Source: Minisyncoccota bacterium (GTDB taxonomy: Bacteria; Patescibacteriota; Minisyncoccia; Phycocordibacterales; CAJBRS01). Taken from it: a stretch of 64,000 nucleotides of DNA. Positions 8,828 through 51,008 of the stretch are shown piece after piece. Below the pieces are notes generated by a model. The model saw only the letters and a list, made by a program, of their open reading frames with translations. It was not told the origin of the DNA and did no database searches. Every line of letters starts with the position of its first letter. Within the stretch, counting starts at the first letter, position 1. The DNA lies in assembly GCA_035652395.1 (NCBI GenBank), contig DASRDX010000009.1, positions 355,739 through 419,738 on the forward strand, read 5' to 3'. The position numbers were made by a program, and so were the translations under genes.

Positions 8828-9511
8828 CTATGGAGTCGGCGTTGTTAGATTTCTCTGGTATTCATCCACCTTCGCTTTCAAGCCTTCGGCGTACTTCCTC
8901 CAGCCGGTGGTATTGGCATTGGCTTGTTTAGCTTTGTTCTCCCAGAAAGCCGATTGTTCCGCCCAATATTTTGCTCGGTTTTCGGCATCGGAAGCGTTTG
9001 AGGCTTTCCCTCTCAAACGCAATATTTCCCGATCTTTGGCGGCAGAATCTTTTTTTTCTTGCGCCAGATCACCTTCCGCTTTGTCTCTGTCGCTTTCAGC
9101 CTGAGCTTTATCGCGTTCCGCCCGCTCTTTTTGATCCTTCCAGTCTTGCATCACTCTTTGGAAGGCGGCGTCAACTTGACCCTTTGGAGTCTCGGCGATA
9201 TTGTTGGTTTTTTCCGAGTCTTCCGGCGGCGGAGTATTTGTTCCAATCTCCTGAACCAATTTCTGTTTTTCGGTAGGTAAAGCCTTCTCAATGTCTTTAT
9301 CCTTTTTTACAAGATCCGGGTCCAATTGCTGAACGACCGGAGGTGTCTTTGAACCGGTGGGAGTGGCGGGTGGACTTGTGGCTGAAGCATCGGCTGTCGC
9401 CGTTCGAGACGAAGTGGCGGATTTGTGACTCGGTTTCTGATCTGCCACCGCCACAAGTGGAAGAGCACAGATGATGAGAAAAAGTAAATTGCTAAAGAAC
9501 TTGCGTTTCAT
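8828..9511 (-). CDS. Secreted coiled-coil protein of unknown function, in the GC-rich island.
   Basis: Signal peptide FFSNLLFLIICALPLVAVA. Ser/Thr/Pro-rich linker. Lys/Asp/Glu/Ala-rich coiled-coil region. Confidence 0.5.
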   Translation of the reverse strand: MKRKFFSNLLFLIICALPLVAVADQKPSHKSATSSRTATADASATSPPATPTGSKTPPVVQQLDPDLVKKDKDIEKALPTEKQKLVQEIGTNTPPPEDSEKTNNIAETPKGQVDAAFQRVMQDWKDQKERAERDKAQAESDRDKAEGDLAQEKKDSAAKDREILRLRGKASNASDAENRAKYWAEQSAFWENKAKQANANTTGWRKYAEGLKAKVDEYQRNLTTPTP

Positions 9512-34406: not shown

Positions 34407-34435
34407 AAGAGGGCGGCCGCTTCGCGGCCGCCCTC
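34407..34435 (-). terminator. Intrinsic terminator downstream of giant surface protein 1.
   Basis: agagggcggccgc-ttc-gcggccgccctct. Confidence 0.6.
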
Positions 34436-34446
34436 TTCCTCAATTC

Positions 34447-37400
34447 TTATGAAGTGGAGCTCCCTGAATCCGTTGGAGGCGCTGGTTCTGATGGAAGCGG
34501 CTCTGGAGCGGGATCAGTGCTTGTTCCGGAGATAGTTGAATTAGGAGAAGTTGAGGCGATGGAATCAGTAGAAGTAGAGCTTATGGTTGACCCATTAGAG
34601 CTTCCAGAAGTGTTGTCTGGCACTACTACGGTATTGTTGTTGGAATCAACAGTAATGACGGTGCCGCTTCCTTGAGTGGTTGAAGTAGCCGTAACGTCCT
34701 GACATTCCCCCGCTACGTTTACCATCGCACCATTTCGAATAACGACGCAATATGGATCACCGGTTACCTGATCGTAAAGAGTGATGCCGTTTGGATGAGA
34801 AGGCGCACCCACTGTAAGCTGCTTGGTAAACAGATGCGAGACATAAGCAATACCGTTTAGCATTTCAGCACCAAAGGATTGGAGCGCCGAAAGAAGATCG
34901 GCTCCGAGACCTGGGCCGCCGCCTCCGGCGGCGGCCCCTCCCCCAATATTCAGACTCTCCAAACTCTTCACTCGCAAGTCGAGCGAAGCGAATGCCGCCG
35001 TAGTCGACGCATTCTTATCATCCACTTTCTGATTTAGTCCTTTTATGGCTTCTACTAAGTATGGCCCTACCTGGGCATAGAGAAGGGATTTATAGCCATT
35101 GGCATCGGTTCGTACCAACTCCGGAATGGTCTTCTCCACATCCTGAGCGATAAAGCCAACTTGCGTAGTGGTCGTATCTCCTTGTCTCCAGTTATAGGTC
35201 ACTCCCTGCAAAGCTAGAACTTTATTCAGAGAATCTGATAGCGGATTAATATTCTGCTTCAATCGCTCATCTGAAGAACATGACCATCCTGTTCCTGCCA
35301 CTACCGTACACTGAGCAGTGCCGGCGCTACCATAAAATCGCGCCACATCTGTTCCTGCAGCAGAAACAGTTAAAGGATACGTTGGAGTGCTCGTCCCAAT
35401 GCCGACGTTACCAGCACCATTGTACACAATAGCGGGAGTAGCAAGTCCATACATACCAAACGATGTATAGTTTGATGTTGAATTTGTTCCTACATAATTA
35501 AAATCAATTGACGCAAGATTATAGTTTGAGGCATCTCTTCCTAATACATAACCGACCGTATTTGAACCTCCTGCTGTAGTCAGTCCGGAATAAAGCATCT
35601 TGGTAATCCAACCATTTGTTGGTCTAGAAGTTGGCTCAACCGATAACGGTGATCCGGGGTTTGTAGTACCGATGCCTACGTTCCCTGTCGCGGTATTCAC
35701 AAACAAGGCCGGCGTCGTTCCAGTGGCTACATTTAAGTTGCCCCAGACATCCAGTTTTTGAGAAGGAGAGGAGGTTCCAATCCCGACGTTGCCTGAAGCG
35801 AGAATGGTCATTCGTGTTAAGGCTCCGGTAGCAAAACTTATACTATTTGTTGGGGAATTACCACTAGTATTGTCCGAAGTAAAAGCTAAACCGACATTAG
35901 AATAAAATTGGGCGGTATTTGGAAAAGAAAATGCCCAATTACTATTAACTAGACCGAAACCTCCGTTCGTCCCATCGGCGCGGACAACTTGTACTCCTGA
36001 AAAGGCACTGGATCCAGTATTAGCATTTCGAATAGTAAGACCGTTTACAAAATTATTATCTGAATACGCAACACTTAGAGGTGTAGAGGGGGTTGTTGTT
36101 CCAATCCCGACATTGCCATTTCCATCAATTCTCATCGCTTCAGTATTGCCTACACCCGTTCGGGAAGTTGAAAAAATGAGTTGGCCAGTTCCCCAATTGC
36201 CATTTCTTGTTCCAGCTTGAGCCGCAATAGAAGCGATTCCTACAGCGTTTCCGGGGAGGTCGCGAGAAGCAAAAACTATTTGGTTAAAATTGTTTGCTGT
36301 CTCATCAAAATTATATAGAGTTAGTGCTGGTATGTTGTTGGCCAGAGTAGTGTTGCTATCTGATTGAAATATTCCTGTCACCGGGGCCCCTATATTACTT
36401 CCGTACCAGTAACCATTTGGTACTGACCCACCAATATTTAAGAAGTTCTGAGGACTATTTGTACCTATTCCCACATTCCCCGTCGCCGTATTCACAAATA
36501 GGGCCGGTGTGGTTCCCGTCGCTACATTCAAGTTCCCCCAGACGTCGAGTTTGGAACCAGGCGTCGTTGTTCCAATTCCCACATTCCCTGAAGATTTTAT
36601 AATCAATGCTTGAGTGCCATTCTGTCCTCCATTATTTGGAATAAATCCAATATCACTAATAGATCCTAATTCCATAATGGAGTTAGCTCGTCCAATGAAA
36701 GAGCCGCCTTCATTATTGAAGTTAGCTATTGTATTAAAATTGGCACCCCCATTTACATCAAGTTTATACTGAGGATTCGTCGTTCCAATCCCGACGTTGC
36801 CACTCGGCAAAATAGTGACTTGTTGATTGAATGTATTATTAGAAGATGCGCCAAGTGTTAGAGGATAATTCTGCATTGAGCCCAATTCAATACGCCCAGC
36901 GCCTGCATTCATGTGCAGCAAGCCGTACTTGGTTGTACCTTGTAAAAGCTCAAGAAAAACATTTTGGCCAGTAGGAGCTCCAAAACTCATTCCGCCGTAC
37001 GAACTTGTTGATTGAACATATAAAAGTGGATTTGAGCCATTGGAAATGGCACCTCCTCCAACACCTGCTACATGGAGATTTGCAGTTGGACTACTCGTCC
37101 CAATCCCGACGTTGCCTGTAAATGTGCTCGTGCCTGTAACTGCAATCGTACCTCCTATAGTGGCATTGCGAAGTAAGTAAAGATCTCGCCATCCCTGACT
37201 TCCTGCAGCGCCGAGGTCTTGACCTCCAGACGGAGTTAATATATTGGCACTAAATAAAATGTTTCCACTATCTGAAGAAATTATTCTTGTAGCACCGTTA
37301 ATTTGAATCATACCGCTCAGTCCACCATTGCCGCTCCGAATGGCTCCACCATTTAATGTTTCAATAGTTCCATCAACAAGTAAATTATTTGTTCCAGGAT

Positions 37401-40254
37401 CACTGACCCCTCCAATATGAACTCCTCCTGCAACAGCGAGTTTAGCTAAAGGCGTGCTTGTCCCAATGCCGACATTGCCCGATGAATCAATTCTCATTCT
37501 TTCCGATCCGTTTGTAAGCAGCCTAATTGGTCCAGACGTTGCATTATTAATCTCTAAGAAATTACCAGCTTGTTGATTGAAGGATATAGATGCTAATCGG
37601 CCAGTTGATGTTAGAAGATCAGCAAAGTTGACCGTATAAGTAGGGTCGGTCGTATAGTAAGTTGTGCCTTGATTAGAACCATTAATCATAATTTGTACAC
37701 CTCCGTTATCGAAGGCGGGGTTGCCGAACCCGTCTGGCCAGTTTAATCGGGTTGTGCCTGTTACTGTAAGTTTTTTTGAAGTGTTTGTTGTTCCAATCCC
37801 GACATTTCCCGCTTGAGTAATGTGAAATAATGACGTACCCGTCGAGGAGGCAATCTCAACTGCGTCCTTCCCCGCCACTGCTTGGAGAGTCAGTGTTGAG
37901 GATTGAGAAGTAGTGCCAAGAGAGAGATTGCGGACAATTAAGTCGCGGAAAGTGCCGGCAGAGCCGTTGTTGATTTCAAAAATCCCGGCAGCATTTCTGG
38001 TTAAACCGATATCAGGTGTTGAGCCAGTACCAAAAACTATTCCCGCCGTAGTCCAGCGAGATGGGGTGTTGTTAAAATTATTGCTACCAAGACCTAAACC
38101 TGCGGAGACTAGAGTTGAGTTGTTACCGGCATCCTTTAAGAGAAGGACGTCATTCCCTCCTATCCCGATATCTAATTCGTGAGTGCCCTGATTCTTGAAA
38201 TAATGTCCTCCATTTATTGGAAAGAGGGTCACCACTCCACTCCCGCTTGGAGCTAAAGTGATATTCTGATTCGTTCCTCCAGCATACATGGTCAAGCCGC
38301 CTGCTCCTCCTGTAATCTGCCCATTGCTCGCCACTATTGATCCGGCAAAAGTGGAAGTGGCGGAAGCATTCGTCGCCACAAAGTTCCCGGCTGTCTCGGT
38401 GCCCGTGGTAGTAGCATTTCCGGAGTTTATGAAGTTAGAAGCGGTGACGTTCCCGGTAAAATATCCGTTACCCACGACTGTTACCTTTTCAAAAGGAGTG
38501 GTGGTGGCAATGCCGAGGTTGCCCGCAACTGAACTATTCCCAGCCCCACTTACAGTTAAAGTGCCGGGCTGAGTAGAGTTGCCACTGTCGTCAATTGCCC
38601 ATTTAATAGCATTTCCTGTTCCCTGAATTTGGAAACCGCCTTGGTTACCAGAACCTGTTCCGCCATAACGGATTCTTGCAATATTGCTTAACCAAGAAAG
38701 ACCTACACTTGCTGATTGATTAGTAGGATTTAAAACTTCAACATCACCGCCAGAGGCTCCAGAGCTTTGGATAATACCATTGTATACATCTAATTTAGAT
38801 CCCGGACTAGTCGTACCGATCCCTACATTGCCATTCGCATCGATTCTCATTCGTTCAGAGCCACTGGAGCCGGTGCCAAAACGCAAAGAATTAGATCTCC
38901 CTTCGATCCGGGCGTTCTCGTTGTTCGTGCTGTAGAAAGTTAGATATTCTCCTGTATTGCCGGCATTGGTGCCCGCATTTTGGAGTCGAAAAATTTCCAC
39001 AGTTGCATTGTCTAAATCATTCTCAACATAGAGCTTAGCGGTTGGATTTGTTGTTCCAATCCCGACATTGCCGGCAAAGGTAGAGTTGGCCGCGCCGTCT
39101 GTAGCCACAAAGTAGGCGGCCACATTAGCACCGGTAGAAGTAGAATTAGTAAAAGTTAAATTAGTAAAGTTGGCATTATTGGCAAAGAAGTTGGAGGAAG
39201 TGGCACTGGTGAAGTTTCCGGACGTACTTGTAATTCTAGTACTAAATAAGTTTGTCCCGGTCGCATTGCCAAAAATAAAATTTGAGACATTGCCGTTGGT
39301 ACCATTTAGATTGGTGGAGAAGAGATTGGTAGAGGTAGCACTAGTGAAGAGATTGTTGGTGCTTGATAGATTGGCTAGGGAGAGATTAGTGCCAGTCGCA
39401 TTGGTGAAGATGAGATTGGTAATGTTAGAACTTGAAGCGTTTAGATTGTTGACGTTCTGAGTGTTGGTGAAGGTGGTGGTGCCAGAGACATTGAAGTTGC
39501 CGTTGACGGTGAGATCGTGATTGACGGTGAGATTTCCCCCAGTGTATAGATTTCCGGCAATGGTTGAAGTAGAAAAGCCGTTAAAGAAATTATTAATTTG
39601 GTTTTGGATATTAGTAATGTCGGAGTTTGAGGGACCGGTCCAAGAGCCGATTGGAGCAGAACCTCCAGAATATGTGATGTAGTTGTTGGTGATCGGTGCC
39701 GGCTGATTTGGCGCCGATCCACTTTGCGCGCCAAAAATTAGAGTGCGCAACTCTTGATCTAGATTTGAAAGCTTTTGGTTAAGTTCTTTTTCCGTGACAC
39801 CAGATTGGATGATGGTAGTTTTTTGCGGATCGACAATAGTGACTGGTTGATTTTTAGAATATGTAGTTACATTTGAGATCGTAGATGGTTGATAATTATT
39901 CTGATTTCCTGTATTTGGCTGAATGACAATCGAGGAGGTAGTGGTTGAGATGGGTGCGGGCTTTTTAAAGAGATCAAAGAAATGTTTCAGGAAATCACTG
40001 ATGGAAGAAAGCACGGAAGCTTCCATGTTAATCCCTTGTTGCCCTAAACCACTGTAGCTATTTGCCACTTGGGTCGGCAAGGTTCCGTAAAGGTGTGCCG
40101 CATCTTTAATGGAATTAATGATGGCAGAGTTCGAATTAAAAAAAGAGGTACTTCCAACAGAAGAGGCCGCCTCTACTTTAGAGACGTTTAGGAATAGGAC
40201 GCTTATTAAGAATAAAGAGCCTAAAACTTTATTAAAAACTGGGTTATGATTCAT
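34447..40254 (-). CDS. Giant secreted surface protein 1 (1935 aa). It has a signal peptide, an N-rich 11-mer tandem-repeat region, many tail-fibre-like GNVGIGTTxP repeats, and a C-terminal peptidase S74-like intramolecular chaperone domain. A conserved Cys-containing module and an S/T-rich tail follow.
   Basis: Signal peptide LGSLFLISVLFLNVSKVEA. Repeats of the type PGSKLDVWGNLNVATGTTPALFVNTATGNVGIGT. S74-like block CSSDERLKQNINPLSDSLNKVLALQGVTYNWRQGD...VGFIAQDVEKTIPELV...LLYAQVGPYLVEAIKGLNQK at about 35030..35280. Confidence 0.8.
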   Translation of the reverse strand: MNHNPVFNKVLGSLFLISVLFLNVSKVEAASSVGSTSFFNSNSAIINSIKDAAHLYGTLPTQVANSYSGLGQQGINMEASVLSSISDFLKHFFDLFKKPAPISTTTSSIVIQPNTGNQNNYQPSTISNVTTYSKNQPVTIVDPQKTTIIQSGVTEKELNQKLSNLDQELRTLIFGAQSGSAPNQPAPITNNYITYSGGSAPIGSWTGPSNSDITNIQNQINNFFNGFSTSTIAGNLYTGGNLTVNHDLTVNGNFNVSGTTTFTNTQNVNNLNASSSNITNLIFTNATGTNLSLANLSSTNNLFTSATSTNLFSTNLNGTNGNVSNFIFGNATGTNLFSTRITSTSGNFTSATSSNFFANNANFTNLTFTNSTSTGANVAAYFVATDGAANSTFAGNVGIGTTNPTAKLYVENDLDNATVEIFRLQNAGTNAGNTGEYLTFYSTNNENARIEGRSNSLRFGTGSSGSERMRIDANGNVGIGTTSPGSKLDVYNGIIQSSGASGGDVEVLNPTNQSASVGLSWLSNIARIRYGGTGSGNQGGFQIQGTGNAIKWAIDDSGNSTQPGTLTVSGAGNSSVAGNLGIATTTPFEKVTVVGNGYFTGNVTASNFINSGNATTTGTETAGNFVATNASATSTFAGSIVASNGQITGGAGGLTMYAGGTNQNITLAPSGSGVVTLFPINGGHYFKNQGTHELDIGIGGNDVLLLKDAGNNSTLVSAGLGLGSNNFNNTPSRWTTAGIVFGTGSTPDIGLTRNAAGIFEINNGSAGTFRDLIVRNLSLGTTSQSSTLTLQAVAGKDAVEIASSTGTSLFHITQAGNVGIGTTNTSKKLTVTGTTRLNWPDGFGNPAFDNGGVQIMINGSNQGTTYYTTDPTYTVNFADLLTSTGRLASISFNQQAGNFLEINNATSGPIRLLTNGSERMRIDSSGNVGIGTSTPLAKLAVAGGVHIGGVSDPGTNNLLVDGTIETLNGGAIRSGNGGLSGMIQINGATRIISSDSGNILFSANILTPSGGQDLGAAGSQGWRDLYLLRNATIGGTIAVTGTSTFTGNVGIGTSSPTANLHVAGVGGGAISNGSNPLLYVQSTSSYGGMSFGAPTGQNVFLELLQGTTKYGLLHMNAGAGRIELGSMQNYPLTLGASSNNTFNQQVTILPSGNVGIGTTNPQYKLDVNGGANFNTIANFNNEGGSFIGRANSIMELGSISDIGFIPNNGGQNGTQALIIKSSGNVGIGTTTPGSKLDVWGNLNVATGTTPALFVNTATGNVGIGTNSPQNFLNIGGSVPNGYWYGSNIGAPVTGIFQSDSNTTLANNIPALTLYNFDETANNFNQIVFASRDLPGNAVGIASIAAQAGTRNGNWGTGQLIFSTSRTGVGNTEAMRIDGNGNVGIGTTTPSTPLSVAYSDNNFVNGLTIRNANTGSSAFSGVQVVRADGTNGGFGLVNSNWAFSFPNTAQFYSNVGLAFTSDNTSGNSPTNSISFATGALTRMTILASGNVGIGTSSPSQKLDVWGNLNVATGTTPALFVNTATGNVGIGTTNPGSPLSVEPTSRPTNGWITKMLYSGLTTAGGSNTVGYVLGRDASNYNLASIDFNYVGTNSTSNYTSFGMYGLATPAIVYNGAGNVGIGTSTPTYPLTVSAAGTDVARFYGSAGTAQCTVVAGTGWSCSSDERLKQNINPLSDSLNKVLALQGVTYNWRQGDTTTTQVGFIAQDVEKTIPELVRTDANGYKSLLYAQVGPYLVEAIKGLNQKVDDKNASTTAAFASLDLRVKSLESLNIGGGAAAGGGGPGLGADLLSALQSFGAEMLNGIAYVSHLFTKQLTVGAPSHPNGITLYDQVTGDPYCVVIRNGAMVNVAGECQDVTATSTTQGSGTVITVDSNNNTVVVPDNTSGSSNGSTISSTSTDSIASTSPNSTISGTSTDPAPEPLPSEPAPPTDSGSSTS
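39130..39480 (-). repeat. Intragenic tandem repeats of about 33 bp (11-aa) in giant protein 1 (pattern xTNATGTNLFS).
   Basis: Visible DNA periodicity (gagattggt... variants) encoding NLIFTNATGTNLSLANLSSTNNLFTSATSTNLFSTNLNGTN... Confidence 0.5.
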
Positions 40255-40279
40255 TAACTGAATCCCTCTTGGGTACTAG

Positions 40280-40308
40280 TGTACTTAGAATTATATATGA
40301 GCGCAAGA
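40280..40308 (-). promoter_or_regulatory. Putative sigma70-type promoter of giant gene 1.
   Basis: On the minus strand: TTTCAA, 17-nt spacer, TATAAT. This lies about 25 nt upstream of the AGAGGGA Shine-Dalgarno sequence and the ATG at 40254. Confidence 0.4.
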
Positions 40309-40373
40309 GGCTTTGAAAGAGAAAAAGTAGTCAAAACAACGGCTTAATTGAGCCAGCTTTTTGAGTTGACCGG

Positions 40374-40419
40374 CCCAGCCGCTTAAAGGCGCTGAAATGA
40401 CCGCCTTTAAGCGGCTGGG
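40374..40419 (-). terminator. Long perfect hairpin (17-bp stem) downstream of giant gene 2.
   Basis: cccagccgcttaaaggcg-ctgaaatgac-cgcctttaagcggctggg. It is nested in a longer imperfect palindrome (about 40347..40448). Confidence 0.5.
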
Positions 40420-40499
40420 TCAGTTAATAATTAGCCAAAAAAGCTCAATATTACCCGAGCGTATGTTATTAAATGCAAAATAATCTCCATAATCTTTAA

Positions 40500-43400
40500 T
40501 TAAGGATTGCTAATTGAAATATCCGTAGAAACGGGAAGACTACCTCCCGATCCCTCCCCTCCTGAATTATCGACACTCGCACCAATACCGGTATCCACTG
40601 CCGGCGGTAATGGAACAGGATTAGGTAAAATTTCTGTGGAGTTCACGGGAGAGCTCTCGTCTCCATTGGAAACAGTAGAAGTGGCAACTGGAGTAGAACT
40701 GCCGGAAGTATTGTTGGTATTATCCGGTACTACTACAGTGTTGTTATTTGAATCAATTGTAATAATGTTTCCGCTACCTGCTCCGACATTCGCTACCTGA
40801 TCGGTTGAGGTGCTGGTTGAATCCGGACATTCACCCGGGTCACTCTTCATTTCACCATTCATAAAGTAAACACAGATTGGTGAGCCGGTTCCTCGATCGT
40901 AAATGGTGAAACCGGTTTTAGAAACATCTTTACCTTTGATTGTTAAATTCTGTGTGGTGAGATGTTGAGCGAATACATTCTTCAAATATGAAATACCGTC
41001 CACAATTTCAGAACCAAATGACTGCAAGGTAGAAAGAATTTCTGAACCGAGTCCACTTGAAACTGTTACTCCCCCGCTTGTCTGCAAATCTTCCAAACTC
41101 TTTACCCGTATATCGATGGCAGAAAGTGCAGCGGTAGTGGAAGCATTGAAAGCATCTTGAGCGTCAAGGCGTGCAGTTGTGGAAGCGGTACTTGAAGAGA
41201 AACTGGCATAGAGAGATTTTACTGAAGCCATCAACAAACCGTTTACTGAAACTTGATCAATAACATTTCCCCACATGAATTGCGGATCCACTTCATCAGC
41301 GATGTATCCAATACGTTTCTTAGCCAACGGGCTATTCGAACCATAGCCTTCGACTTCGTTCTTGTATCGGAAGTAGTGGAGGGGAGAATCCAAAATCATT
41401 TTCAAAGCGCCATTGTAGTCGGAGTAATCAGTAATATCTTGCTTAGTATCTCGAGTGGAGGTTTGGGCGCCAATTACTACACCGGAGGCGTCGTTGGCAT
41501 TGGTTGGTGAAGAAGTGGAAACACGAACGTTTCCGGAACTGTCAGACCAGATGAATTTATCAATTCCTGTTCGGGATATTAAGTTAATTGAACCGGCACC
41601 GTTTGAAGCATTGGTATTGCGGCCTATTGTTAGGGTTCGGCCAGCCGCTCCTGCTCCAAGGTCAGCGTCTTCGAGATCAACAAAGGTTCGGGGAATAGTG
41701 CTTGTACCACCAATTCCAATATTTCCATTTGCAGCAATGTAAAGTTGTTGAGCGCCGGAAGAGGAAGCAACCAGAAGTGACATGTTGGCTCCTCCAACAC
41801 CTGTTACCCCAAGAGTGGCGAACGGAGTACTCGAGCCAACACCAAAGAAACCATTTGGTCGCAGAGTTAAGAGTTGAGCATTCGTGGAAGAAGCCACCAT
41901 AAATGGGTTGGTGGCGCCAGCAATACCAGTAACGGCTAAGGTGGCAAATGGAGTGGAGGAGCCGACACCGACATTACCGTTAAATGAAATGTGCAGTGCA
42001 GAGGTACCGGTTGATGAGGCAATGTCTAACAGGTCGTTAGCACCGGCCAATCCTTGAATGGAAAGTCGCGATGTACCGGTAGAAGTGCCGACGTTAATTA
42101 TTCCATTCAAAGTGTCCGCCACGAACAAGTTAGTGTTTCCAGTGGATCCTTGAATCTGCAGGGCTGTTACGGAATTAGTAGTTGATTGGAAAGAAACCGG
42201 AGCATTAACTACGCCACGAAGTTGAGTTGAACCAATCTGATATGAGGTGGCGATGGCGCCAGTCTGAAGTTGAACGGCATCAAGATAAAAGGTACGACCG
42301 TTAGCATCGGTCTGTTCAATGAAAATGTATGGGCTGCCTGAAATAGTTCCTGAAGTAAAAGTACAATAGAATCTTTTCCATCCACCAGTAACTACAGTAG
42401 TGTCATTTAAGGTACAGGTTTGTTCATTTACACCGTCGCTTGCGATGCCGGCTCGGATAGTAAAGTTGGCACCGGAAGCTTGAGAATAAAAAGATAAAGT
42501 GTATTGAGTAGCCGAGCTTAAAGCACTAGTAAATAAGGTGGTTTTGGCGCCGGAGGAAGCCGTGGCCGAATCCCCTACTGCCAGAGAGCTAACACCGTGA
42601 TACTTGTTGGTGGTCACACGGGTAGTAGAACCGGTGCCAGCAGTAATGGCCCAACCGGCGGCATTTACTTCAAAACCTGGGTTAGTCAGCAGGTTGTTTG
42701 AAGTAGTATCTACTACAAAGATTGGTGCACCTTGACTGTTTTGAACCTGAAAGGCGGTGGATGAGTTAGTTGGAGTCATGACTACCGCTGTCCCAGCCAC
42801 CGTTAAAGTCTGTCCTGGCGTAGAAGTGCTAATACCGAAATTACCATTTTGAAGCAAAGTTAAAAGTTGGGTGTTAGTAGAAGAGGCAATAATAAATGGA
42901 TTAATGCCTCCGTAACCTTTAACAGCCAAAGTGGCAATTGGAGTAGAGCTTCCGATGCCAACACTACCGGCTGAAGTAATACGCATTTTTTCTCCCAGAC
43001 CGCCGGTAGTGTTGTTCTTAAAACTTAAGTAGCTATTAGTTACACCGTTTGTGGCATCTTCTTTGCGAGCTTCAATGGTGCCAAAGACTCGAAGAGCAGT
43101 AGCGGGGCTGTCATTGTAGCCACCTAAAGTAATGGAAGCTCCGACATCTGCCGCTTGGGCGTTGGTGGTATAGACATTCAAATTACCGAATACGCTACCG
43201 GCAGTAGTAACGTTGGCTGAAGCAATATCTACCGTACTATTTGGACTAGCGGTGCCAATTCCAATTTTGCCGGTGGCAGTGTTTGCCGAGAAAAGCGGGG
43301 TGGAAGAAGTGGCGATATTCAGGTTGCCCCAAATATCCACTAATTGAGAAGGAGAGGAGGTACCGATACCAATCTTCCCTACCGCCGTGTTTGCAATGAA

Positions 43401-46400
43401 TAGTGAAGTAGATGAAGTGGCGACGTTGAAATTTCCCCAGACATCCAATCGCTGTGAAGGAGAAGATGTGCCAACCCCTAAGTTACCGTTTGTATCCAAT
43501 CGCATTCTTTCTTGATTGAAAGTTTTGAAAGCTAAAGAGTTGTTGTCAATCGTTCCAAGGGTAGCGAGAGCTCCGAACGAGTTCCCGTTTTGTTGAAAGT
43601 CGTTAGCCAACAGAGTCGAAGTAGAAACCCAAGTTGGCGCCACCCCTGCCCCCGCTGACTGAAGGACTTGCCCAGTAGTGCCGGCATTACCATTTGGCGT
43701 AAGAGCACCGGTGAAATTTATGTCGCCTCCGACCGAAAGTTTAGAAGATGGAGTGGTAGTGCCGACTCCAACGTTTCCGTTAGTCAAGATGCGAAATAAC
43801 TGAGTACCTGTTGATGAAGCCACTACAAACGGATCGGAGGCACCTACGCCAGTGACTGAGAGAGTGGCAAAAGGTGTAGTTGAGCCAACTCCTAATCTTC
43901 CAGCACTGGTAAGTCTCATTCCTTCGCTCAGGTTTCCTCCAGATGCTCTGGTTGAGAAACTAAGATCGGTACTAATAGGTGAACTAAGGTACGTGGCTCC
44001 CATATCAATCAAACCATCTTGAATTCTAGTTATGAGAGCGTTTTGTGAACCCGTCACGTTGTTGAAAATAGTTGTAGTTCCAAAAGTGCCGCCATTGTTT
44101 ATGCCATTTGAAATAACCAATGGAGCAGTAGGGTTACTGCTTCCCACCCCGACCATTCCAGTCGCAGTGTTCACAAATAAAGCTGGGGTGGTACCCGTGG
44201 CTACGTTTAAATTTCCCCAAAGATCTAATTTCTGTGAAGGAGTGGTAGTGCCGATGCCAAAATTGCCAGTATTTAATAAGGTAACTGCAGGGTCGGTTGA
44301 TTGAGTTCTAAATTGTATTCCTGATTGTCCATAGATTCTAAACATTGCCGCTCCGTTGGCATTCAAATCGTTGAATCCGTTTGTGTAGAAATTATAATTA
44401 TTAGAACCAGTTCCTACTTGAAGTCCAAGACTTGTGGTCGGATCTCCGGCTACAACAAGCATGGGGGCATTATTTGAAAGGGTGGACGCATTTACTCCTA
44501 TACCGACGTGCCCATTCTGAGATATGGCAAATAGATGACTATCTGTGGAAGAGGCGACAATGAATGGATTAGTGCCAGATGTACCTTTGACACTAAGCGT
44601 GGCAATTGGACTCGATGTGCCAATACCAACGTTTGCAGTATTATTGTTGAAAATATTGTTTCCGCTTGTGGTCCAGACACTATTTAAAGTATTTCCGGTA
44701 AATGAAAGACCTGTGCCCGCGGTGATGGCAGCTTGTTTGCCATTAAAAGTACTCCAGTCTGCAGAAGTTAATAGTCCCCTATTTGAAGCCGAGGCGCTTG
44801 GCATATTAAACGTATGAGTGGATCCGGAAGATACGATTGAGAAATCCGTGCCGGTGGTGGTAGTGGCAAAAGTTTGGCTGGCTCCACTCAAACCATTCAA
44901 ACTAGTTATACCGGATCCCCCACTAATGCCCAGTGTAGAAGTAGCAACCCATCTAGTAGATGTGCCGGTAGTCTGAAGAACCATTCCGAGAGTGCCGGCT
45001 GTAGCGGAGCCATCGAACAAAGTTTTAGTTAAAGAAAGTGAACCGCTAATTCCTAAACTATCGGTAATAGTAGAAGTGCCGGCGCCGGAGATTGTGGTTA
45101 GACCAGTAAAGAGTCCACTTCCAGCTACAGAAAGATTGGTGGTAGGGGTGGAGGTGCCGATGCCAACTTTTCCTGTCGCCGTATTTACCAAAAAGGTAGG
45201 AGTTGAACTTGTTGCAACATTTAGGTTGCCCCAAATGTCTAGTCTTTGTGAAGGAGTGGTTGTGCCAATTCCTATGTTTCCCGTAGAAAGATTTCCGTAC
45301 AAAGCCCCTCCAATATTAAGAAAATTATTGGCACTAGCCAATATGGATGAAGCAAGATATCCAATTAGAATGTTATTACTACTATTGTCTAGACTGGCTC
45401 CAGCGTTATATCCTAATAAAACATTGTTGGATCCTGTGACCATACTAGCGCCGGTATTCATTCCCAAGAAAACATTGTTGGATCCTGTAACTAGACTTCC
45501 TCCTCCCATGTCTCCCATTGCAATGTTATTTGAAATTGGACCTGGGGTGGCACCCTGATTCCAAGCATATCCTCCTAAGATTTCCTGGCCTATACCAGAG
45601 TTTGAACTGCCACTGGTATTATTTGCTCCTGCATAGTTACCAATAAAATTATTTGATTGTCCTATTGTATTCTGGATTCCAGCACCAATTCCTAAGAAGG
45701 TATTATCAAATCCGGTTGTATTGTAATATCCGGCGCTATTTCCTAGAAAAATATTTTCATAACCGCTGGTGGTAGTGTTGCCTGCACCACTGCCTAAGAA
45801 AATATTGTCTCGACCCGTAGTGTTTTTTGACCCGGCAGTTAAACCAATAAATACATTATTGTTTCCAGTGGTGTTGTTTGCGCCCGCACTGCTCTCAGCA
45901 AAAAAGTTGTTTCCGCCGGTAACTGCAGCGGTCGTTGTTGGAGTTGCTCCAGCTAAATAAAAACTCTTCGTTCCTGTAGCCAGAAGAGCAGATATGCCAT
46001 TAAAATAAAGGGGTTGGGTGTAGTTACTTGTTCCAGCAACGGTCAAAGCATAGCCGGCAGTGGTGGTACCAATGCCAACATTTCCTGTAGCTGTGTTTAC
46101 AAACAAAGTTGGAGTCGTACCTGTGGCCACATTCAAGTTTCCCCAGACATCTAATTTCGATCCAGGCGTGGAGGTACCAATGCCAACATTGCCGTTATTC
46201 AAAACTGAAAGAAACGTGGAGGAATTATTTCCCGCCGAGAAAATATTTCCTGAACCGATTTGCGTGATAGCGAGGGCCGTTTGCGTTGAGGAAGCAAAAA
46301 GAACTCCGGCCTGATCATTGCGTAAGTATTGCGTTGAAGATGCGCCGCCGAGATTATAGGCTTCAATGGCGGCCGGCACAGCACCGATAATTTTTCGCGG

Positions 46401-46799
46401 CGTCATTTCCGAATCTGATTCCACCGTTACTCCAAGATAAAGGGTCTGATTAAAATTGATTCCGGTAAGCGGCGTAGTAGAGCCGAGCATCACACTGAAG
46501 AGTCCGCTTGTTACCTGAATTTTATTTGCTCCAGTGTCAGCTTCCGTCCAAATAGCGGCGCCTCCGGTTGAAACGGTGTAGAGTTTGAAAGTTATGTTAT
46601 AGAGACCATCGGCGACGGCAACGTTTGAAGCGTTGGTCAACTTGCCTTGATAATTAACCTGTTGATTGATGGCGGCTTGAACTAAAGTCCCATCTGAAAA
46701 AATAGATAAAAAAATACTCCCAGTGGTAAGGAGTGTAAGTATGAGGGACCTTACGAAAAACGTATTCAGTTGTCGGTTTCTTATAAGCCTATGGACCAT
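40500..46799 (-). CDS. Giant secreted surface protein 2 (about 2099 aa from ATG 46799; the ORF track gives a TTG start at 46835). It has a signal peptide, tail-fibre-like Gly-rich repeats, a CBM4_9-like jelly-roll domain and a C-terminal S74-like intramolecular chaperone domain. The same conserved Cys module and S/T tail as protein 1 follow.
   Basis: The ATG at 46799 is preceded by the same SD context (AGAGGGATTC) as gene 1. Signal peptide MVHRLIRNRQLNTFFVRSLILTLLTTGSIFLSIFS. CBM-like block NPGFEVNAAGWAITAG...YTLSFYSQASG...GGWKRFYCTFTSG...TFYLDAVQLQ at about 42265..42690. S74-like block DITDYSDYNGALKMILDSPLHYFRYKNE...KRIGYIADEV...NGLLMASVKSL at about 41200..41455. Confidence 0.8.
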   Translation of the reverse strand: MVHRLIRNRQLNTFFVRSLILTLLTTGSIFLSIFSDGTLVQAAINQQVNYQGKLTNASNVAVADGLYNITFKLYTVSTGGAAIWTEADTGANKIQVTSGLFSVMLGSTTPLTGINFNQTLYLGVTVESDSEMTPRKIIGAVPAAIEAYNLGGASSTQYLRNDQAGVLFASSTQTALAITQIGSGNIFSAGNNSSTFLSVLNNGNVGIGTSTPGSKLDVWGNLNVATGTTPTLFVNTATGNVGIGTTTAGYALTVAGTSNYTQPLYFNGISALLATGTKSFYLAGATPTTTAAVTGGNNFFAESSAGANNTTGNNNVFIGLTAGSKNTTGRDNIFLGSGAGNTTTSGYENIFLGNSAGYYNTTGFDNTFLGIGAGIQNTIGQSNNFIGNYAGANNTSGSSNSGIGQEILGGYAWNQGATPGPISNNIAMGDMGGGSLVTGSNNVFLGMNTGASMVTGSNNVLLGYNAGASLDNSSNNILIGYLASSILASANNFLNIGGALYGNLSTGNIGIGTTTPSQRLDIWGNLNVATSSTPTFLVNTATGKVGIGTSTPTTNLSVAGSGLFTGLTTISGAGTSTITDSLGISGSLSLTKTLFDGSATAGTLGMVLQTTGTSTRWVATSTLGISGGSGITSLNGLSGASQTFATTTTGTDFSIVSSGSTHTFNMPSASASNRGLLTSADWSTFNGKQAAITAGTGLSFTGNTLNSVWTTSGNNIFNNNTANVGIGTSSPIATLSVKGTSGTNPFIVASSTDSHLFAISQNGHVGIGVNASTLSNNAPMLVVAGDPTTSLGLQVGTGSNNYNFYTNGFNDLNANGAAMFRIYGQSGIQFRTQSTDPAVTLLNTGNFGIGTTTPSQKLDLWGNLNVATGTTPALFVNTATGMVGVGSSNPTAPLVISNGINNGGTFGTTTIFNNVTGSQNALITRIQDGLIDMGATYLSSPISTDLSFSTRASGGNLSEGMRLTSAGRLGVGSTTPFATLSVTGVGASDPFVVASSTGTQLFRILTNGNVGVGTTTPSSKLSVGGDINFTGALTPNGNAGTTGQVLQSAGAGVAPTWVSTSTLLANDFQQNGNSFGALATLGTIDNNSLAFKTFNQERMRLDTNGNLGVGTSSPSQRLDVWGNFNVATSSTSLFIANTAVGKIGIGTSSPSQLVDIWGNLNIATSSTPLFSANTATGKIGIGTASPNSTVDIASANVTTAGSVFGNLNVYTTNAQAADVGASITLGGYNDSPATALRVFGTIEARKEDATNGVTNSYLSFKNNTTGGLGEKMRITSAGSVGIGSSTPIATLAVKGYGGINPFIIASSTNTQLLTLLQNGNFGISTSTPGQTLTVAGTAVVMTPTNSSTAFQVQNSQGAPIFVVDTTSNNLLTNPGFEVNAAGWAITAGTGSTTRVTTNKYHGVSSLAVGDSATASSGAKTTLFTSALSSATQYTLSFYSQASGANFTIRAGIASDGVNEQTCTLNDTTVVTGGWKRFYCTFTSGTISGSPYIFIEQTDANGRTFYLDAVQLQTGAIATSYQIGSTQLRGVVNAPVSFQSTTNSVTALQIQGSTGNTNLFVADTLNGIINVGTSTGTSRLSIQGLAGANDLLDIASSTGTSALHISFNGNVGVGSSTPFATLAVTGIAGATNPFMVASSTNAQLLTLRPNGFFGVGSSTPFATLGVTGVGGANMSLLVASSSGAQQLYIAANGNIGIGGTSTIPRTFVDLEDADLGAGAAGRTLTIGRNTNASNGAGSINLISRTGIDKFIWSDSSGNVRVSTSSPTNANDASGVVIGAQTSTRDTKQDITDYSDYNGALKMILDSPLHYFRYKNEVEGYGSNSPLAKKRIGYIADEVDPQFMWGNVIDQVSVNGLLMASVKSLYASFSSSTASTTARLDAQDAFNASTTAALSAIDIRVKSLEDLQTSGGVTVSSGLGSEILSTLQSFGSEIVDGISYLKNVFAQHLTTQNLTIKGKDVSKTGFTIYDRGTGSPICVYFMNGEMKSDPGECPDSTSTSTDQVANVGAGSGNIITIDSNNNTVVVPDNTNNTSGSSTPVATSTVSNGDESSPVNSTEILPNPVPLPPAVDTGIGASVDNSGGEGSGGSLPVSTDISISNP

Positions 46800-46873
46800 T
46801 TCAGAATCCCTCTGAAATATATCCCCCTCGTTCAATTTAGAGTCCTGAACTAGACTTTTATCCCTCGTCTAAA

Positions 46874-46901
46874 ATTATAACCTACCTGAAAGCTTTGGCA
46901 A
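46874..46901 (-). promoter_or_regulatory. Putative sigma70-type promoter of giant gene 2.
   Basis: On the minus strand: TTGCCA, 16-nt spacer, TATAAT. Confidence 0.4.
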
Positions 46902-46994
46902 GTGATTTTGAGTTTAAACTTGACAACTTTATGGCTAAAATAGCTTGCGAAATAAAGCTGGATTGGCGAGGAGAAAAAAGAAGAAAGTTATCCA

Positions 46995-47036
46995 CAGATG
47001 AAGGGGCGCGGGCAAAGCCCGCGCCCCTTCATCTGT
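46995..47036 (-). terminator. Intrinsic terminator ending the WxL/DUF916/FN3 operon.
   Basis: cagatgaaggggcgcgggc-aaa-gcccgcgccccttcatctg, a perfect 19-bp stem. Confidence 0.6.
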
Positions 47037-47078: not shown

Positions 47079-48434
47079 TTATCGCCAAATTAATTCCAGC
47101 ATCAAAAGAATGATTAAGAGGATCCAAAGCCAACTCCATCCAGGAAATTGTAGTTTATTTAAAAAACCGGAATCTTCTGAAGGCGGAATTGTTTGGAGCT
47201 TTCCTTTTTGTTGAATCAGGGTCGTGCCGTTAGCATCCACAGCGCTAATAAAAAATTCATACAAGCCGATTTTATGATATGCCGGTATCAAAGCTTCAAA
47301 AGTATTGTTACTCCCCTCTCGGGTTAAATTGTATACATTAAACTTATTGAAATCCTTTTCATCTTGGACACTTAAGATCACTTGATAAAAATTCTCTGGC
47401 AGACTTTCGGTAGATACAATGAACTTAATTGAATTATTACCCTCTACTTGTGCTAGATTATTGTAAAAATATTTCTGTTCATTGTTCTGTTCTATGCTAA
47501 TTCGGAATAAGTTCTTTGAAGTCGGAGATAAAATACTTGTAGAACTGGTAGCAACAAAGACCTGTTCATTCCGATTATTAAGAGCTGGTATGATTCGCAG
47601 ATGTAACAGTGCACCGGAGGAAAAATTACCGTCAATATTTTCCACGAAAGCGGCATAATAATAATCGTGATTAATTTGGAGCGGCCCATCCGTAACGGAA
47701 GTGCCCGTGCCCTTATAAATTTCTTTGCCATGTGCCGAGTCAATTGGATAATTAAAATCGGAACGAGTGAGGACTAAATCTCGAAAGGGTTGCTCCGAAG
47801 AATACTGCCACGTTAATTTAACCGATGATCCGACTAACTGATATGAGAAGTTCAAGATATTAATTGGTGATTGAAAAGGGCTTAAGGTAAGAAATGGAAT
47901 TGGACCGACAAAACTCGATTGACCCTTTCGATCGGTAGACTGAATCTTAAAATAATAAAGGGTGGCAGGTTCCAGATAATCAAGCTCAATCTGATGATTT
48001 ATACCGTAATTAATTTCGGTCACTCCTCCTTTCTCTGTATCGGCAGTCTTGCCCCAATTTAATAATCCGATTGATTCTCCAGTCGTTTGCCATTCTATTA
48101 AAACAGAGGTGTCGAAGAGATTAATAACTTTAATGCTTTGAGGTAAAACGGCGCTCGAAATACCGGAAGAAGTAACGGCAGTGAGCGGAGCCGGTCCGTA
48201 GTTAATGTTTGCAGAAGGCGCCGGAGTAGAAGAGGCATTACAATCTAAAGGACATCCGCCATAGGTCTCGCCGAATTGGGGTTCACAGATGTTGTTGTTA
48301 TTGCAATTATGGACCTGTAACTCAACAACGGAGGCAGTGTCGGCCGCTAAAGCGGCCGACACTGCAAAAAACGATAAAAATAGAGACCATCCAACAATAA
48401 TGGCCCCTATTAAAAAGACATTTCTAAAGGACAT
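47079..48434 (-). CDS. Surface protein with two fibronectin type III-like domains and a C-terminal TM anchor.
   Basis: Signal peptide. Cys-rich segment HNCNNNNICEPQFGETYGGCPLDCNA. FN3-like blocks SIKVINLFDTSVLIEWQT...LYYFKIQSTD and VKLTWQYSSEQPFRDLVLTRSDFNYP...YYYAAFVEN. C-terminal GWSWLWILLIILLMLELIWR. Confidence 0.5.
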   Translation of the reverse strand: MSFRNVFLIGAIIVGWSLFLSFFAVSAALAADTASVVELQVHNCNNNNICEPQFGETYGGCPLDCNASSTPAPSANINYGPAPLTAVTSSGISSAVLPQSIKVINLFDTSVLIEWQTTGESIGLLNWGKTADTEKGGVTEINYGINHQIELDYLEPATLYYFKIQSTDRKGQSSFVGPIPFLTLSPFQSPINILNFSYQLVGSSVKLTWQYSSEQPFRDLVLTRSDFNYPIDSAHGKEIYKGTGTSVTDGPLQINHDYYYAAFVENIDGNFSSGALLHLRIIPALNNRNEQVFVATSSTSILSPTSKNLFRISIEQNNEQKYFYNNLAQVEGNNSIKFIVSTESLPENFYQVILSVQDEKDFNKFNVYNLTREGSNNTFEALIPAYHKIGLYEFFISAVDANGTTLIQQKGKLQTIPPSEDSGFLNKLQFPGWSWLWILLIILLMLELIWR

Positions 48435-48435
48435 A

Positions 48436-49194
48436 CTATAGAGCCACGGCAGTAACCGTTACTGAAGCCTGATAAGTACCGGCTTCCTGAATCTTATTGG
48501 AACCGATTCCTACCTGATACTTAACGGAAGTGGTGGCCCCGTTTGGCTGATTATTGGTAGTGCCGAGAGCAATAGTTTTGGGACTCGTAGACATACCGTC
48601 CCAACATCGGTCCGTCGTATCCGTAGAACCAGTGTTGCAGGCACTACCATTATTGCGATAGCGGGAGATTACGTCTGAACCATGAGGGGAAAAACCAAAA
48701 GTGGAGGAAGCTGCTCCAACACTAAAAAGAAAATCAGGGGCAGCGCCGGCGGGGGCGTAATCCGTAATTGAAGCGCTGGTGCTGGTAGATTTTAGGGCGG
48801 GAGTAGTAGATGCCACGATAGAAAGTTGATAGCCTGCCGGATCATCTGTAACCACTATCCAATCCGATTGGGCTTGCACGGATCCACCGGAAATGCCGCT
48901 AATGTTCGGTAAGGAAATATTAACTGTATTAGATACAGAAATGTAGTTAGTCTGTAAGGCCTGATAGCCGGCGCTTAGACGATAGTTGGTACTTGAGCTG
49001 AAACCGGTTCCTACCTCCCCCACCGTACTTTCTTGTCTATAGTTACTACTGGTGCTAAAACCACCTCCAATATTCAAACTATCAGACTGAATCTTGTATG
49101 AGCTGCTCTGCATGACGGCGGCAAAAATAGAAAGCGGTATCAGAAGTATGGAAATTAAAATGACCAGTTTTAAAGTCTTGAAAATTTTTAGCAT
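48436..49194 (-). CDS. WxL-domain-like secreted surface protein (paralog A).
   Basis: Signal peptide. Motif DWIVVTDDPAGYQLS resembles the first WxL motif (TWxLxDAP). Paralogous to 50202..50873 over the C-terminal 150 aa. Confidence 0.4.
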   Translation of the reverse strand: MLKIFKTLKLVILISILLIPLSIFAAVMQSSSYKIQSDSLNIGGGFSTSSNYRQESTVGEVGTGFSSSTNYRLSAGYQALQTNYISVSNTVNISLPNISGISGGSVQAQSDWIVVTDDPAGYQLSIVASTTPALKSTSTSASITDYAPAGAAPDFLFSVGAASSTFGFSPHGSDVISRYRNNGSACNTGSTDTTDRCWDGMSTSPKTIALGTTNNQPNGATTSVKYQVGIGSNKIQEAGTYQASVTVTAVAL

Positions 49195-49230
49195 GAGATT
49201 TTTAGAGGCGCCGCGAAGCGGCGCCTCTTC

Positions 49231-50199
49231 CTACTTCCTCTTCAGTTCAAAGTTGCGTCTAAAGAAGTAGATAAGAGCGACTAAGATTAGTATGATGAGA
49301 ATAACGATGATCATGATCTTGTAAGGAATGACCCAGAAAGAAATAGTCATGTCATCAGTAGTGCTGGCGTACCCGCGATTAAGGGTAACCGTGGCAGTGT
49401 ATCTTCCGAGAGCAATATTCTTCCCCCACGGAATCTCCCGATAACGAAGTGAGTGAGGCAAAGCAAAGTAAGCATCAATTGGCAACTGATCAATCGTGGC
49501 TCCCCACATATTTTTGACCGTAATATAACCATAAGGAACGAGGTGAATGTTTCCATCGTTATTGAAGTAGACCTGAAAGGTTAAGTTGCCATTCTGATAA
49601 ATGGGTCCCGCTTCTTTGATGCGGAAATCGGATAGCCGACCACTTTGATTAACCGGCCCCAAAACTCGAACAAAAAGCAGGGACCCAATTCGGGAAATAA
49701 TAGTGGCTGCTTGGGCCGCCGCCGTACTTGAACCGGCATTTAATTTTGATGGCGCGTTTGAAACAATAACCGCTCCATAGAAACCGCCTGGTGCGGCATC
49801 TTTTGGTAGATCAACTTTGACCGGAATTTGAATACGTTCGCCAAAGTGAAGGGTAAATTGATTAACTTCCGGATGCAGGTAATCTTTCAAAGAGTACGGA
49901 CTTTTATCTCCTCCGAGCAGGACTACCGGCTGTTGGGGGTTGTTGGAACCGACTATGTCTTCAGATTTTATATCGAAGGTGACCGGATCTTTAATTCGGC
50001 TGGTAACACTGATATTAACAGTAGCGCTTTGACCCGGATTGAGATCAACTTCCTGCTTGGCAGGCTCTACCACGAAATCATTCCGATTTTCAACAGTCGT
50101 CTGGAAGACCGTGTAAGCGCGAATGGCAATAGCTCCAATCAAAAGAACGGCCAGTGTAGCACAAATCGAAATCAGAATTTTCTTTTGATTGAAAGCCAT
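49231..50199 (-). CDS. DUF916/DUF3324-like cell-surface protein (CscA-like WxL-locus partner). N-terminal signal/TM, C-terminal TM and a basic tail.
   Basis: 322 aa. N-terminal LISICATLAVLLIGAIAI. C-terminal IMIIVILIILILVALIYFFRRNFELKRK. Placed between two WxL-like genes in one operon. Confidence 0.35.
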   Translation of the reverse strand: MAFNQKKILISICATLAVLLIGAIAIRAYTVFQTTVENRNDFVVEPAKQEVDLNPGQSATVNISVTSRIKDPVTFDIKSEDIVGSNNPQQPVVLLGGDKSPYSLKDYLHPEVNQFTLHFGERIQIPVKVDLPKDAAPGGFYGAVIVSNAPSKLNAGSSTAAAQAATIISRIGSLLFVRVLGPVNQSGRLSDFRIKEAGPIYQNGNLTFQVYFNNDGNIHLVPYGYITVKNMWGATIDQLPIDAYFALPHSLRYREIPWGKNIALGRYTATVTLNRGYASTTDDMTISFWVIPYKIMIIVILIILILVALIYFFRRNFELKRK

Positions 50200-50201
50200 A
50201 A

Positions 50202-50924: not shown

Positions 50925-51008
50925 GCAATAATATGATTAATGGGGATAAGTCTTATCCCAGAGAATCCCTCTCATAAATTACGACGAAAGGGGTGCCCAA
51001 ATCTTTCT

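Follow-up and report, generated by a model that had tools for sequence, protein, structure and literature searches.

The stretch of Patescibacteria DNA analysed here (64,000 nt; hereafter the window) carries two giant open reading frames (ORFs) on its minus strand, g1 and g2, and within them several copies of a repeat of about 100 bp. What do these genes encode, and is the repeat a site at which they recombine? An initial annotation had treated the repeats as substrates for homologous recombination, copy-number change and exchange between the paralogs, and had described the genes as independent transcription units with a common start context. We assign a probability of roughly 0.7 to the reading that g1 and g2 are separately transcribed and encode secreted, tail-fibre-like mosaic fibres, and that the repeat is a conserved protein module and not an active recombination site. 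g1 runs from an ATG at 40254 to 34447 (1935 amino acids, aa); g2 ends at 40500 and begins either at a TTG at 46835 (2111 aa) or, as argued below, at an ATG at 46799 (2099 aa).

34447..40254, minus strand: g1, a 1935-aa fibre protein
40500..46799, minus strand: g2, a 2099-aa fibre protein

The gene order of the window recurs in a Candidatus Paceibacteria metagenome-assembled genome (MAG; locus L001) and in metagenome contigs of the Joint Genome Institute (JGI), including L011; these two syntenic loci and the window are the three genomes compared throughout. The counterpart of g2 is P0001 in L001 and P0361 in L011 (JGI sample 3300061213), and P0003 lies at another syntenic locus; L011 has no counterpart of g1. 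Synonymous divergence among the three genomes is saturated (third-position identity 0.39-0.46).

The repeat, which we call the W-unit, was found at all five places where it had been reported, two in g1 and three in g2, and two more copies, degenerate and in tandem, lie at 43487-43251.

46065..46193, minus strand: W-unit g2_a (GNVGIGTSTPGSKLDVWGNLNVATGTTPTLFVNTATGNVGIGT), reported earlier
45153..45281, minus strand: W-unit g2_b, reported earlier
44139..44267, minus strand: W-unit g2_c, reported earlier
43251..43487, minus strand: W-units g2_d1 and g2_d2, a degenerate tandem pair, newly added
36460..36588, minus strand: W-unit g1_a, reported earlier
35665..35793, minus strand: W-unit g1_b, reported earlier

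Apart from this one doublet the units are dispersed, 780-1014 nt apart. Their DNA identity had been put at about 80%, which is too high: the copies share 58-76% of their nucleotides across the full 129-nt unit and 69-79% when only the best 100-nt windows are taken, against an amino-acid identity of 56-95%. The unit reads GNVGIGTxxPxxKLDVWGNLNVATGTTPALFVNTATGNVGIGT, a 36-residue module set between two loop motifs, and it joins modules of different kinds. Third codon positions hold 22-32 of the 31-43 mismatches per pair, or about 65-90% (22/33 to 30/34), and identical residues are written with the same codon at a frequency of 0.35, compared with 0.33 expected from the genes’ own codon usage. Units are 68.4% identical to one another in nucleotides within the window (same-codon fraction 0.355) and 66.1% identical to the units of L011 (0.343). 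Because mismatches gather at third positions, codons are shared at chance level and similarity within the genome equals that between genomes, the DNA similarity of the W-units is, on this codon evidence, fully explained by protein conservation. The repeat encodes a 36-residue adaptor module (...KLDVWGNLNVATGTTPALFVNTATGNVGIGT) conserved as protein over very many genomes. A 43-aa W-unit query matched the representatives of 32,048 clusters at E <= 1e-3 (6,739 of them at E <= 1e-10), with up to 59 matched stretches per protein, and near-identical W-units occur in unrelated giant proteins.

Three other origins of the repeat were considered and rejected. The mismatches involve all four bases without adenine bias and fall mostly at third positions, which does not fit a template/variable pair of a diversity-generating retroelement. 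Tandem Repeats Finder reported no head-to-tail arrays of near-identical units, and no tandem arrays beyond a trivial 18-nt x 2.3, which speaks against a copy-number-variable tandem-repeat locus. Concerted evolution or gene conversion was set aside for want of any within-genome synonymous excess (0.35 versus 0.33; 0.355 versus 0.343).

From the N-terminus, g1 consists of a signal peptide, a shaft, an S74 chaperone/protease and a C-terminal domain shared with g2; g2 has a signal peptide, an N-domain marked by INYQGKLT (about 46667-46230), a mosaic shaft, a weak S74-like region and the same C-terminal domain, the last ~200 residues being common to both at 46% identity. The signal peptides, read from the translations, are MNHNPVFNKVLGSLFLISVLFLNVSKVEA before AS in g1 and MVHRLIRNRQLNTFFVRSLILTLLTTGSIFLSIFSDGTLVQA before AI in g2, and in the homologues the peptide always ends in an AxA-type site before INYQGKLT. 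g1 matches Peptidase_S74 (PF13884) at E = 3.6e-17 (62.8 bits against a cut-off of 22; domain at 35274-35110, motif SDERLK), and both proteins match tail-fibre PHROGs (g1 at 5e-42, g2 at 6e-24; families 9942 and 18345); an NCBIfam search gave no matches. Among solved structures the nearest in sequence are Bdellovibrio fibres: residues 1369-1519 of g1 match Bd2133 (PDB 8OND; E = 1.1e-11), and residues 1087-1173 of g2 align to the same protein at E = 4e-4, including ERMRxDTxGNLGxGT. Heterogeneous shaft modules are separated by the loop motif G-N-V-G-I-G-T-x-x-P-x-x-K-L, present 13 times in g1 (GNVGIGT type: 12 exact, 1 GNLGIAT) and 14 times in g2, with a spacing equal to Bd2133’s own GNLGLGTAAPTSAL; g2 also has an insert with NxxxG-type repeats. 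The g2 N-domain, from which the N-terminus of g1 differs, is beta-rich in an AlphaFold2 model (mean predicted local distance difference test score 83, and >90 over about 90 residues, about 10-100) and occurs in more than 200 proteins, every source-named one of which comes from Patescibacteria or an unclassified bacterium.

Within g1, the 12 exact GNVGIGT motifs share codons slightly above expectation (0.41 versus 0.34), with the rare GGG codon at the second glycine in 7 of the 12, and a 25-nt exact repeat is found at 36093 and 39047.

The closest known system is the S74 subgroup of the mosaic adhesive trimer (MAT) fibres of Bdellovibrio bacteriovorus (Caulton et al., 2024, PMC10769870; PDB 8OND, 8OML, 8OJN), for which a signal peptide, a conserved beta-rich N-domain of about 130 aa directly after it, a trimeric beta-helix shaft bearing a recurrent loop motif (V-G-G/N-pi-x-x-P-x-x-x-L type) and a tip of S74 type (catalytic motif SDxxxK) or of another type have been described (PMC10769870). 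With these fibres g1 and g2 share the signal peptide, followed in g2 by a predicted beta-rich N-domain; the long shaft with its ...ERMRIDxxGNxGxGTxxPxxxL loop motif and the direct match to Bd2133 (E = 1e-11); the S74 chaperone/protease with a Ser-x4-Lys motif, clear in g1 and weak in g2; and a mosaic of swappable modules, in a cell whose way of life requires attachment to other bacteria. They differ in being about twice as long (1935-2099 aa versus about 1000 aa), in having ~220-260 residues after the Pfam S74 match (a helical region, a Cys-containing domain and a Ser/Thr/Pro tail), in a g2 N-domain without detectable sequence link to Bdellovibrio and a g1 N-terminus that is different again, in the 36-residue W-unit adaptor, which is not described for MATs, and in their host, a CPR (candidate phyla radiation) bacterium. 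The one CPR member examined by electron microscopy, Vampirococcus, has a single-membrane envelope (PMC8080830).

Other systems offer partial likenesses. Phage tail fibres and tailspikes whose C-terminus is an S74 intramolecular chaperone (K1F endosialidase, T5 pb1) share the PF13884 and PHROG 9942 and 18345 matches and the self-cleavage after trimer folding that g1 and g2 may undergo, whereas g1 and g2 are chromosomal, far longer and both provided with secretion signals, with no virion genes nearby. CPR epibionts, for example Vampirococcus lugosii, have giant surface proteins proposed to act in host recognition and attachment (PMC8080830); these too are very large secreted or membrane proteins of a reduced CPR genome, but those of Vampirococcus carry WD40, PKD, integrin and other domains, and in the text consulted they are not linked to S74 or to tail fibres. 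Trimeric autotransporter adhesins, as some sources call the homologues, are likewise long repetitive fibres with short Gly/Asn-rich repeats; unlike them, g1 and g2 have no C-terminal beta-barrel anchor that could be found and end in S74 plus a soluble domain. Given the analogy with Bdellovibrio MAT fibres and giant CPR surface proteins, g1 and g2 are most likely trimeric host-attachment fibres, and the g2 N-domain probably sits at the cell surface. From these sequences we infer trimerisation, S74 self-cleavage, surface location and host binding; as S74/MAT-like fibres, the two proteins are of a kind already known.

Does the length and composition of such fibres vary, as the initial annotation supposed? 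Among syntenic relatives it does, and relative to the closest ortholog the two largest differences each have an end in the loop motif. This variation was built over deep divergence. The counterparts of g2 measure 1255 aa (P0001 in L001), 1400 aa (P0003), 2099 aa (window) and 4397 aa (P0361 in L011), with W-unit counts of 0 in P0001 and P0003, 7 in the window (the two tandem copies counted) and 7 in P0361. We compared the fibres by diagonal-block and global alignments, gapped BLASTP between such repetitive proteins being uninformative. Residues 205-544 of g2 are missing from P0001, both junctions lying at the same position of two GxVGIGT motifs, and residues 740-1279 are replaced there by 98 residues, with the right junction at a motif (VGIGS). 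P0361 has a different C-terminus from g2, and the L001 counterpart of g1 keeps only the two terminal parts, N and C, and lacks any GxVGIGT motif. The junctions in the motif and the differences at g1 in L001 and L011 mark the fibres as mosaics in which the motif bounds several modules; over long evolutionary time the fibres have acquired, lost and exchanged modules, the breakpoints frequently lying in the motif. T-even tail-fibre adhesins, in which modules are shuffled via glycine-rich conserved motifs of gp37/gp38 (PMC3157838, citing Tetart 1998), resemble this arrangement in having conserved Gly-rich motifs between variable modules, the two largest differences here from the closest ortholog each having an end in the motif. 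The motif copies of g1 and g2 differ in being synonymously saturated, with no recent exchange detectable, and the pattern is seen in sequence and not in experimental crosses.

P0361 (L011 3001-16194) is intact in JGI sample 3300061213 and is called as two parts of 2549 + 1834 aa in sample 3300067032 (P0002 and P0362, both 100% contained in it), through a nonsense polymorphism or a sequencing error. The pair of 2549 and 1834 aa was considered as a second tandem pair of paralogs and rejected, since it is a single 4397-aa gene that a stop interrupts in one of the assemblies.

The start of g2 bears on how the genes are expressed. The identical 10-mer AGAGGGATTC precedes both start codons by 4-5 nt (g1 40269-40260, g2 46813-46804), as had been noted, and has one further exact copy in the window.

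40260..40269, minus strand: g1 Shine-Dalgarno (SD)-like box AGAGGGATTC, 5 nt before ATG 40254

An in-frame TAG lies seven codons upstream of ATG 40254, so the g1 box must be non-coding, and the 10-mer stands in different reading frames relative to the ATG in the two genes. Around the g2 start the window, L001 and L011 share the 22-mer ATTTCAGAGGGATTCTGAAATG without a single change; in L011 an in-frame TGA stands six codons before the equivalent ATG; and the gene calls for P0001 (1255 aa, i.e., 1267 minus 12) and for P0002 and P0361 begin at the equivalent Met. Together these observations support ATG 46799 as the predicted start of g2 over the TTG at 46835, as the initial annotation had argued. 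The third exact AGAGGGATTC, at 50963-50972 (minus strand), is intergenic, downstream of GatB and ~90 nt before the next ATG, and is followed by a GGGATA..TATCCC hairpin; this arrangement of GAGGGAT and hairpin recurs syntenically in L001 (about 3430).

Most other genes of the window lack an SD, g1 and g2 being among the few with an SD-like box (8828..9511 has AGGAGG). In 12 of the 46 window genes the distance from the end of a TATAAT-like hexamer to the ATG is 5-9 nt, exactly 6 nt in eight of them; starts of this SD-less, TATAAT-like pattern include 10279, 10336, 27836, 28929, 32125, 34367, 52448 and 60589. This placement of the hexamers suggests leaderless mRNAs for many window genes.

Against this background the conserved leader of g2 invites a different account of the shared box. 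Nucleotide-level conservation covers the g2 promoter, leader and first 30 codons (window 46690-46910, minus strand; L001 7315-7535; L011 2880-3110).

46797..46873, minus strand: g2 5' leader, with two blocks nearly invariant in the three genomes
46707..46748, minus strand: early coding stretch of g2, conserved at the nucleotide level in the three genomes

After the TATAAT all three genomes read TAG(A/G)CGAGGGAT. Box 1, GAGGGAT, lies at 46866-46860, box 2, GAGGGGGAT, at 46829-46821, and the SD-like AGAGGGATTC follows at 46813-46804. An 8-bp palindrome at 46818-46798 (TTTCAGA-N5-TCTGAAA, including the AUG) pairs the flank of the SD with the AUG, TCCCTC at 46748-46743 (codons 17-19) is complementary to the GAGGGA boxes, and an intragenic hairpin, ACTCCT-N7-GGGAGT with a T7 run, lies at 46734-46707. 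Over codons 15-31, 47 of 50 nt are common to the window and L001; the best of 2165 other 51-nt coding windows in the gene reaches 45. In the consensus fold box 1 pairs with (G/A)UCCCUC of codons 17-19, the AUG is buried in a stem of 8-9 bp, and a hairpin plus U7-8 stands at codons 22-31. The boxes might, on such grounds, not simply be SD sequences but belong to a dedicated regulatory device, either RNA switch or protein operator, that controls the fibre genes jointly, an explanation that we find unlikely, if not strongly so. The 10-mer is the same in two genes read in different frames, most other window genes have no SD, and the three GAGGGAT-type boxes, the complementary TCCCTC and the palindrome that takes in the AUG do not vary among three genomes that are saturated at synonymous sites. 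The core GAGG, however, lies 9-10 nt from the ATG, which is ordinary SD geometry; the stems are invariant across the three genomes and so show no covariation; the fold is weak by z-score (-1.7 to -2.0); apart from the box, the g1 leader is not conserved; and Rfam gives the g2 leader no match at E <= 1, the sole match in the whole window being a tRNA. The GAGGGAT leader is missing from three more distantly related Patescibacteria fibre genes, which makes it specific to this small clade; viral contigs scanned for an invariant 21-mer contained none.

In its fullest form, the stretch from the g2 promoter to codon 31 would be a cis-regulatory RNA device gating expression of the host-attachment fibre in a Paceibacteria-like clade, a tentative proposal that we hold to be slightly less likely again. 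Its candidate parts may be the three GAGGGAU boxes, the stem of AUG and SD flank, the UCCCUC able to close a long-range helix with box 1, and the intragenic hairpin with U7.

Whether g1 and g2 are transcribed separately depends on the signals at their ends.

46874..46901, minus strand: g2 promoter TTGCCA-16-TATAAT, 11/12 consensus matches, position conserved in L001 and L011
40290..40318, minus strand: g1 promoter TTTCAA-17-TATAAT (equivalently TTCAAA-16-TATAAT), from the sequence
46994..47036, minus strand: hairpin after the upstream 451-aa gene, 20-bp perfect stem, z = -7.0
40340..40460, minus strand: g2 terminator region, three hairpins
34407..34437, minus strand: g1 terminator hairpin, 14-16 bp perfect stem, z = -5.5

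The g2 promoter had been placed exactly; the g1 site is real but had been given as 40280..40308, about 10 nt off its position at 40318/40317-40290. The g2 promoter has counterparts at the same place in L001 (TTGTTT-16-TATAAT) and L011 (TTGATA-17-TATAAT), and the L001 counterpart of g1 has a promoter-like TTGCAC-17-TACAAT. Promoter-like matches in the region number 22, compared with 26 +/- 5 in shuffled sequence; it is thus their position and conservation, and not the scan, that support the promoters. The long terminal hairpins attributed to each gene do follow both stops (40427-40366; 34437-34407). The g2 terminator region comprises a small hairpin with T6 (40460-40443), a long hairpin with an 18-bp perfect core (40427-40366) and a small hairpin with TTGTTTT (40355-40340), and the 145-nt intergenic stretch folded as a whole gives z = -5.0; a GAPDH promoter of leaderless type comes after the g1 hairpin. 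The hairpin at 46994..47036 is a predicted insulator of g2 from upstream transcription. Long hairpins end many genes of the window and are a general gene-end signal in this genome.

It is quite unlikely that g1 and g2, perhaps together with the four genes upstream, are instead co-transcribed, with the promoter matches due to chance and the hairpins attenuating transcription or stabilising RNA. Such an operon would agree with the common strand and conserved order of the genes, with a promoter count not above shuffles, and with the long g2 hairpin, which has no U-tract. Yet three genomes retain the g2 promoter hexamers and their spacing although their divergence is saturated, each giant gene is flanked by hairpins of -40 to -52 kcal/mol, and small hairpins beside the long one do carry U-tracts. 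In L001, moreover, the fibre genes are separated by two unrelated genes, of which one has a -10 box of its own. With its own promoter-like site and flanking hairpins, each giant gene thus appears, judged by these signals, to be its own transcription unit, as had been claimed; we infer the actual starts and stops of transcription from the same signals. The genes inserted in L001 (11298-12895) encode 263 aa and 217 aa, the latter with a HYHFLV motif; this 217-aa product may resemble an IS200/RAYT-type transposase.

The proposal that the ~100-bp units drive frequent copy-number change and paralog exchange, so that fibres vary within populations, we consider improbable, a shade more so than an operon. 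It can draw on the 3.5-fold range in length of the g2 counterparts, their unit counts of 0, 7 and 7 and the indel junctions in the motif, on the fact that all three assemblies checked break 660-864 nt into homologous fibre genes, and on the precedent of conserved-motif shuffling in T-even tail-fibre adhesins (PMC3157838). Against it, synonymous sites are random between units, and similarity within the genome does not exceed that between genomes. Exact runs between W-units span 8-18 nt (over the two genes as a whole the maximum is 25 nt, in a GNVGIGTT motif), the units diverge by 24-42%, and no segment common to g1 and g2 exceeds 77% identity over 100 nt; in B. subtilis a divergence of 20.8% cuts RecA-dependent recombination ~45,000-fold, and the minimal processing segment is >40 bp (PMC4824099). 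With chance codon sharing, runs of at most 18 nt and no arrays, the claim that the repeats are present-day recombination substrates is not supported; the copies would not be undergoing homogenisation and would be poor RecA substrates today. Among the family clusters, five in which the members compared come from different assemblies and are 99.9-100% identical show no internal indels, and the length variants inside 90% clusters nearly all go back to a different start call or to truncation. Internal indels occur in only one pair, 90% identical, and are located in a different, NxxxG repeat.

The three broken assemblies are contigs L012, L013 and L014 (27.7, 20.9 and 190.6 kb), and most matches to the g2 N-domain are annotated ‘partial’. 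Assemblies appear to break in fibre genes, and repeats or strain heterogeneity could be the cause.

That the genes are prophage or tailocin tail-fibre genes and not cellular surface proteins, as the PHROG matches and the S74 domain might suggest, is scarcely credible in view of their housekeeping flanks, a position kept in three genomes, the lack of phage structural (virion or tail) genes nearby, the signal peptide on both proteins and the spread of the N-domain through Patescibacteria chromosomes.

Several points weigh against the reading of g1 and g2 as separately transcribed secreted fibres with a non-recombining protein module. The S74-like region of g2 (41456-41286, motif STRDTK) scores 17 bits, below the Pfam cut-off of 22, and a fold search of the g2 N-domain against the PDB gave a best E of 0.02, none <= 0.001, with marginal matches to viral beta-sandwiches. 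The long hairpin after g2 has the missing U-tract already mentioned. Slippage, template switching and micro-homology joining, which are RecA-independent, need only short identities like those present, and the motif-located breakpoints of the relatives fit recombination at motifs as well as selection for in-register junctions. Scans of genomes and metagenomes returned only relatives at <=63% identity, with none at strain level, and neither flanking protein, GAPDH or the 451-aa product, had an exact match. Anatomy, homology, synteny, codon statistics and leader conservation are matters of observation; expression and protein behaviour are predictions from sequence.

g1 and g2 lie among housekeeping genes, with GatB on the upstream side and GAPDH, RpiB, Rpe and a split transketolase on the downstream side, together with four small conserved genes. 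Because of these neighbours, and of a position kept in three genomes, the region is chromosomal DNA of a member of the Patescibacteria, probably a Paceibacteria-like one, and not a prophage. The order of the four genes upstream of g2 (47079-50873, minus strand; 223, 322, 252 and 451 aa) is the same in L001 and, as judged by gene size, in L011. A weak WxLIP_PGBD match is found in the 322-aa protein. Same-sized counterparts of the 451-aa gene adjoin the fibre gene at the P0003 locus (457 aa) and in the Taylorbacteria MAG L014 (474 aa) and share with it the same weak Pur_ac_phosph_N match. These four genes may be partners of the fibre. A 188-aa antisense ORF inside g2 (44992-45558, plus strand) is most likely a by-product of repetitive coding sequence.

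A general caution follows from the W-unit: dispersed repeats of 70-80% DNA identity in genes for repetitive proteins can come wholly from amino-acid conservation, and synonymous sites should be checked first. The conserved g2 leader offers a concrete candidate for the study of how fibre expression is controlled. On the question of how CPR bacteria recognise and hold their hosts, these genes suggest MAT-like S74 mosaic fibres encoded at a conserved chromosomal site in a Paceibacteria-like lineage, with a shaft and tip that differ greatly among the three genomes, as expected for determinants of host range.

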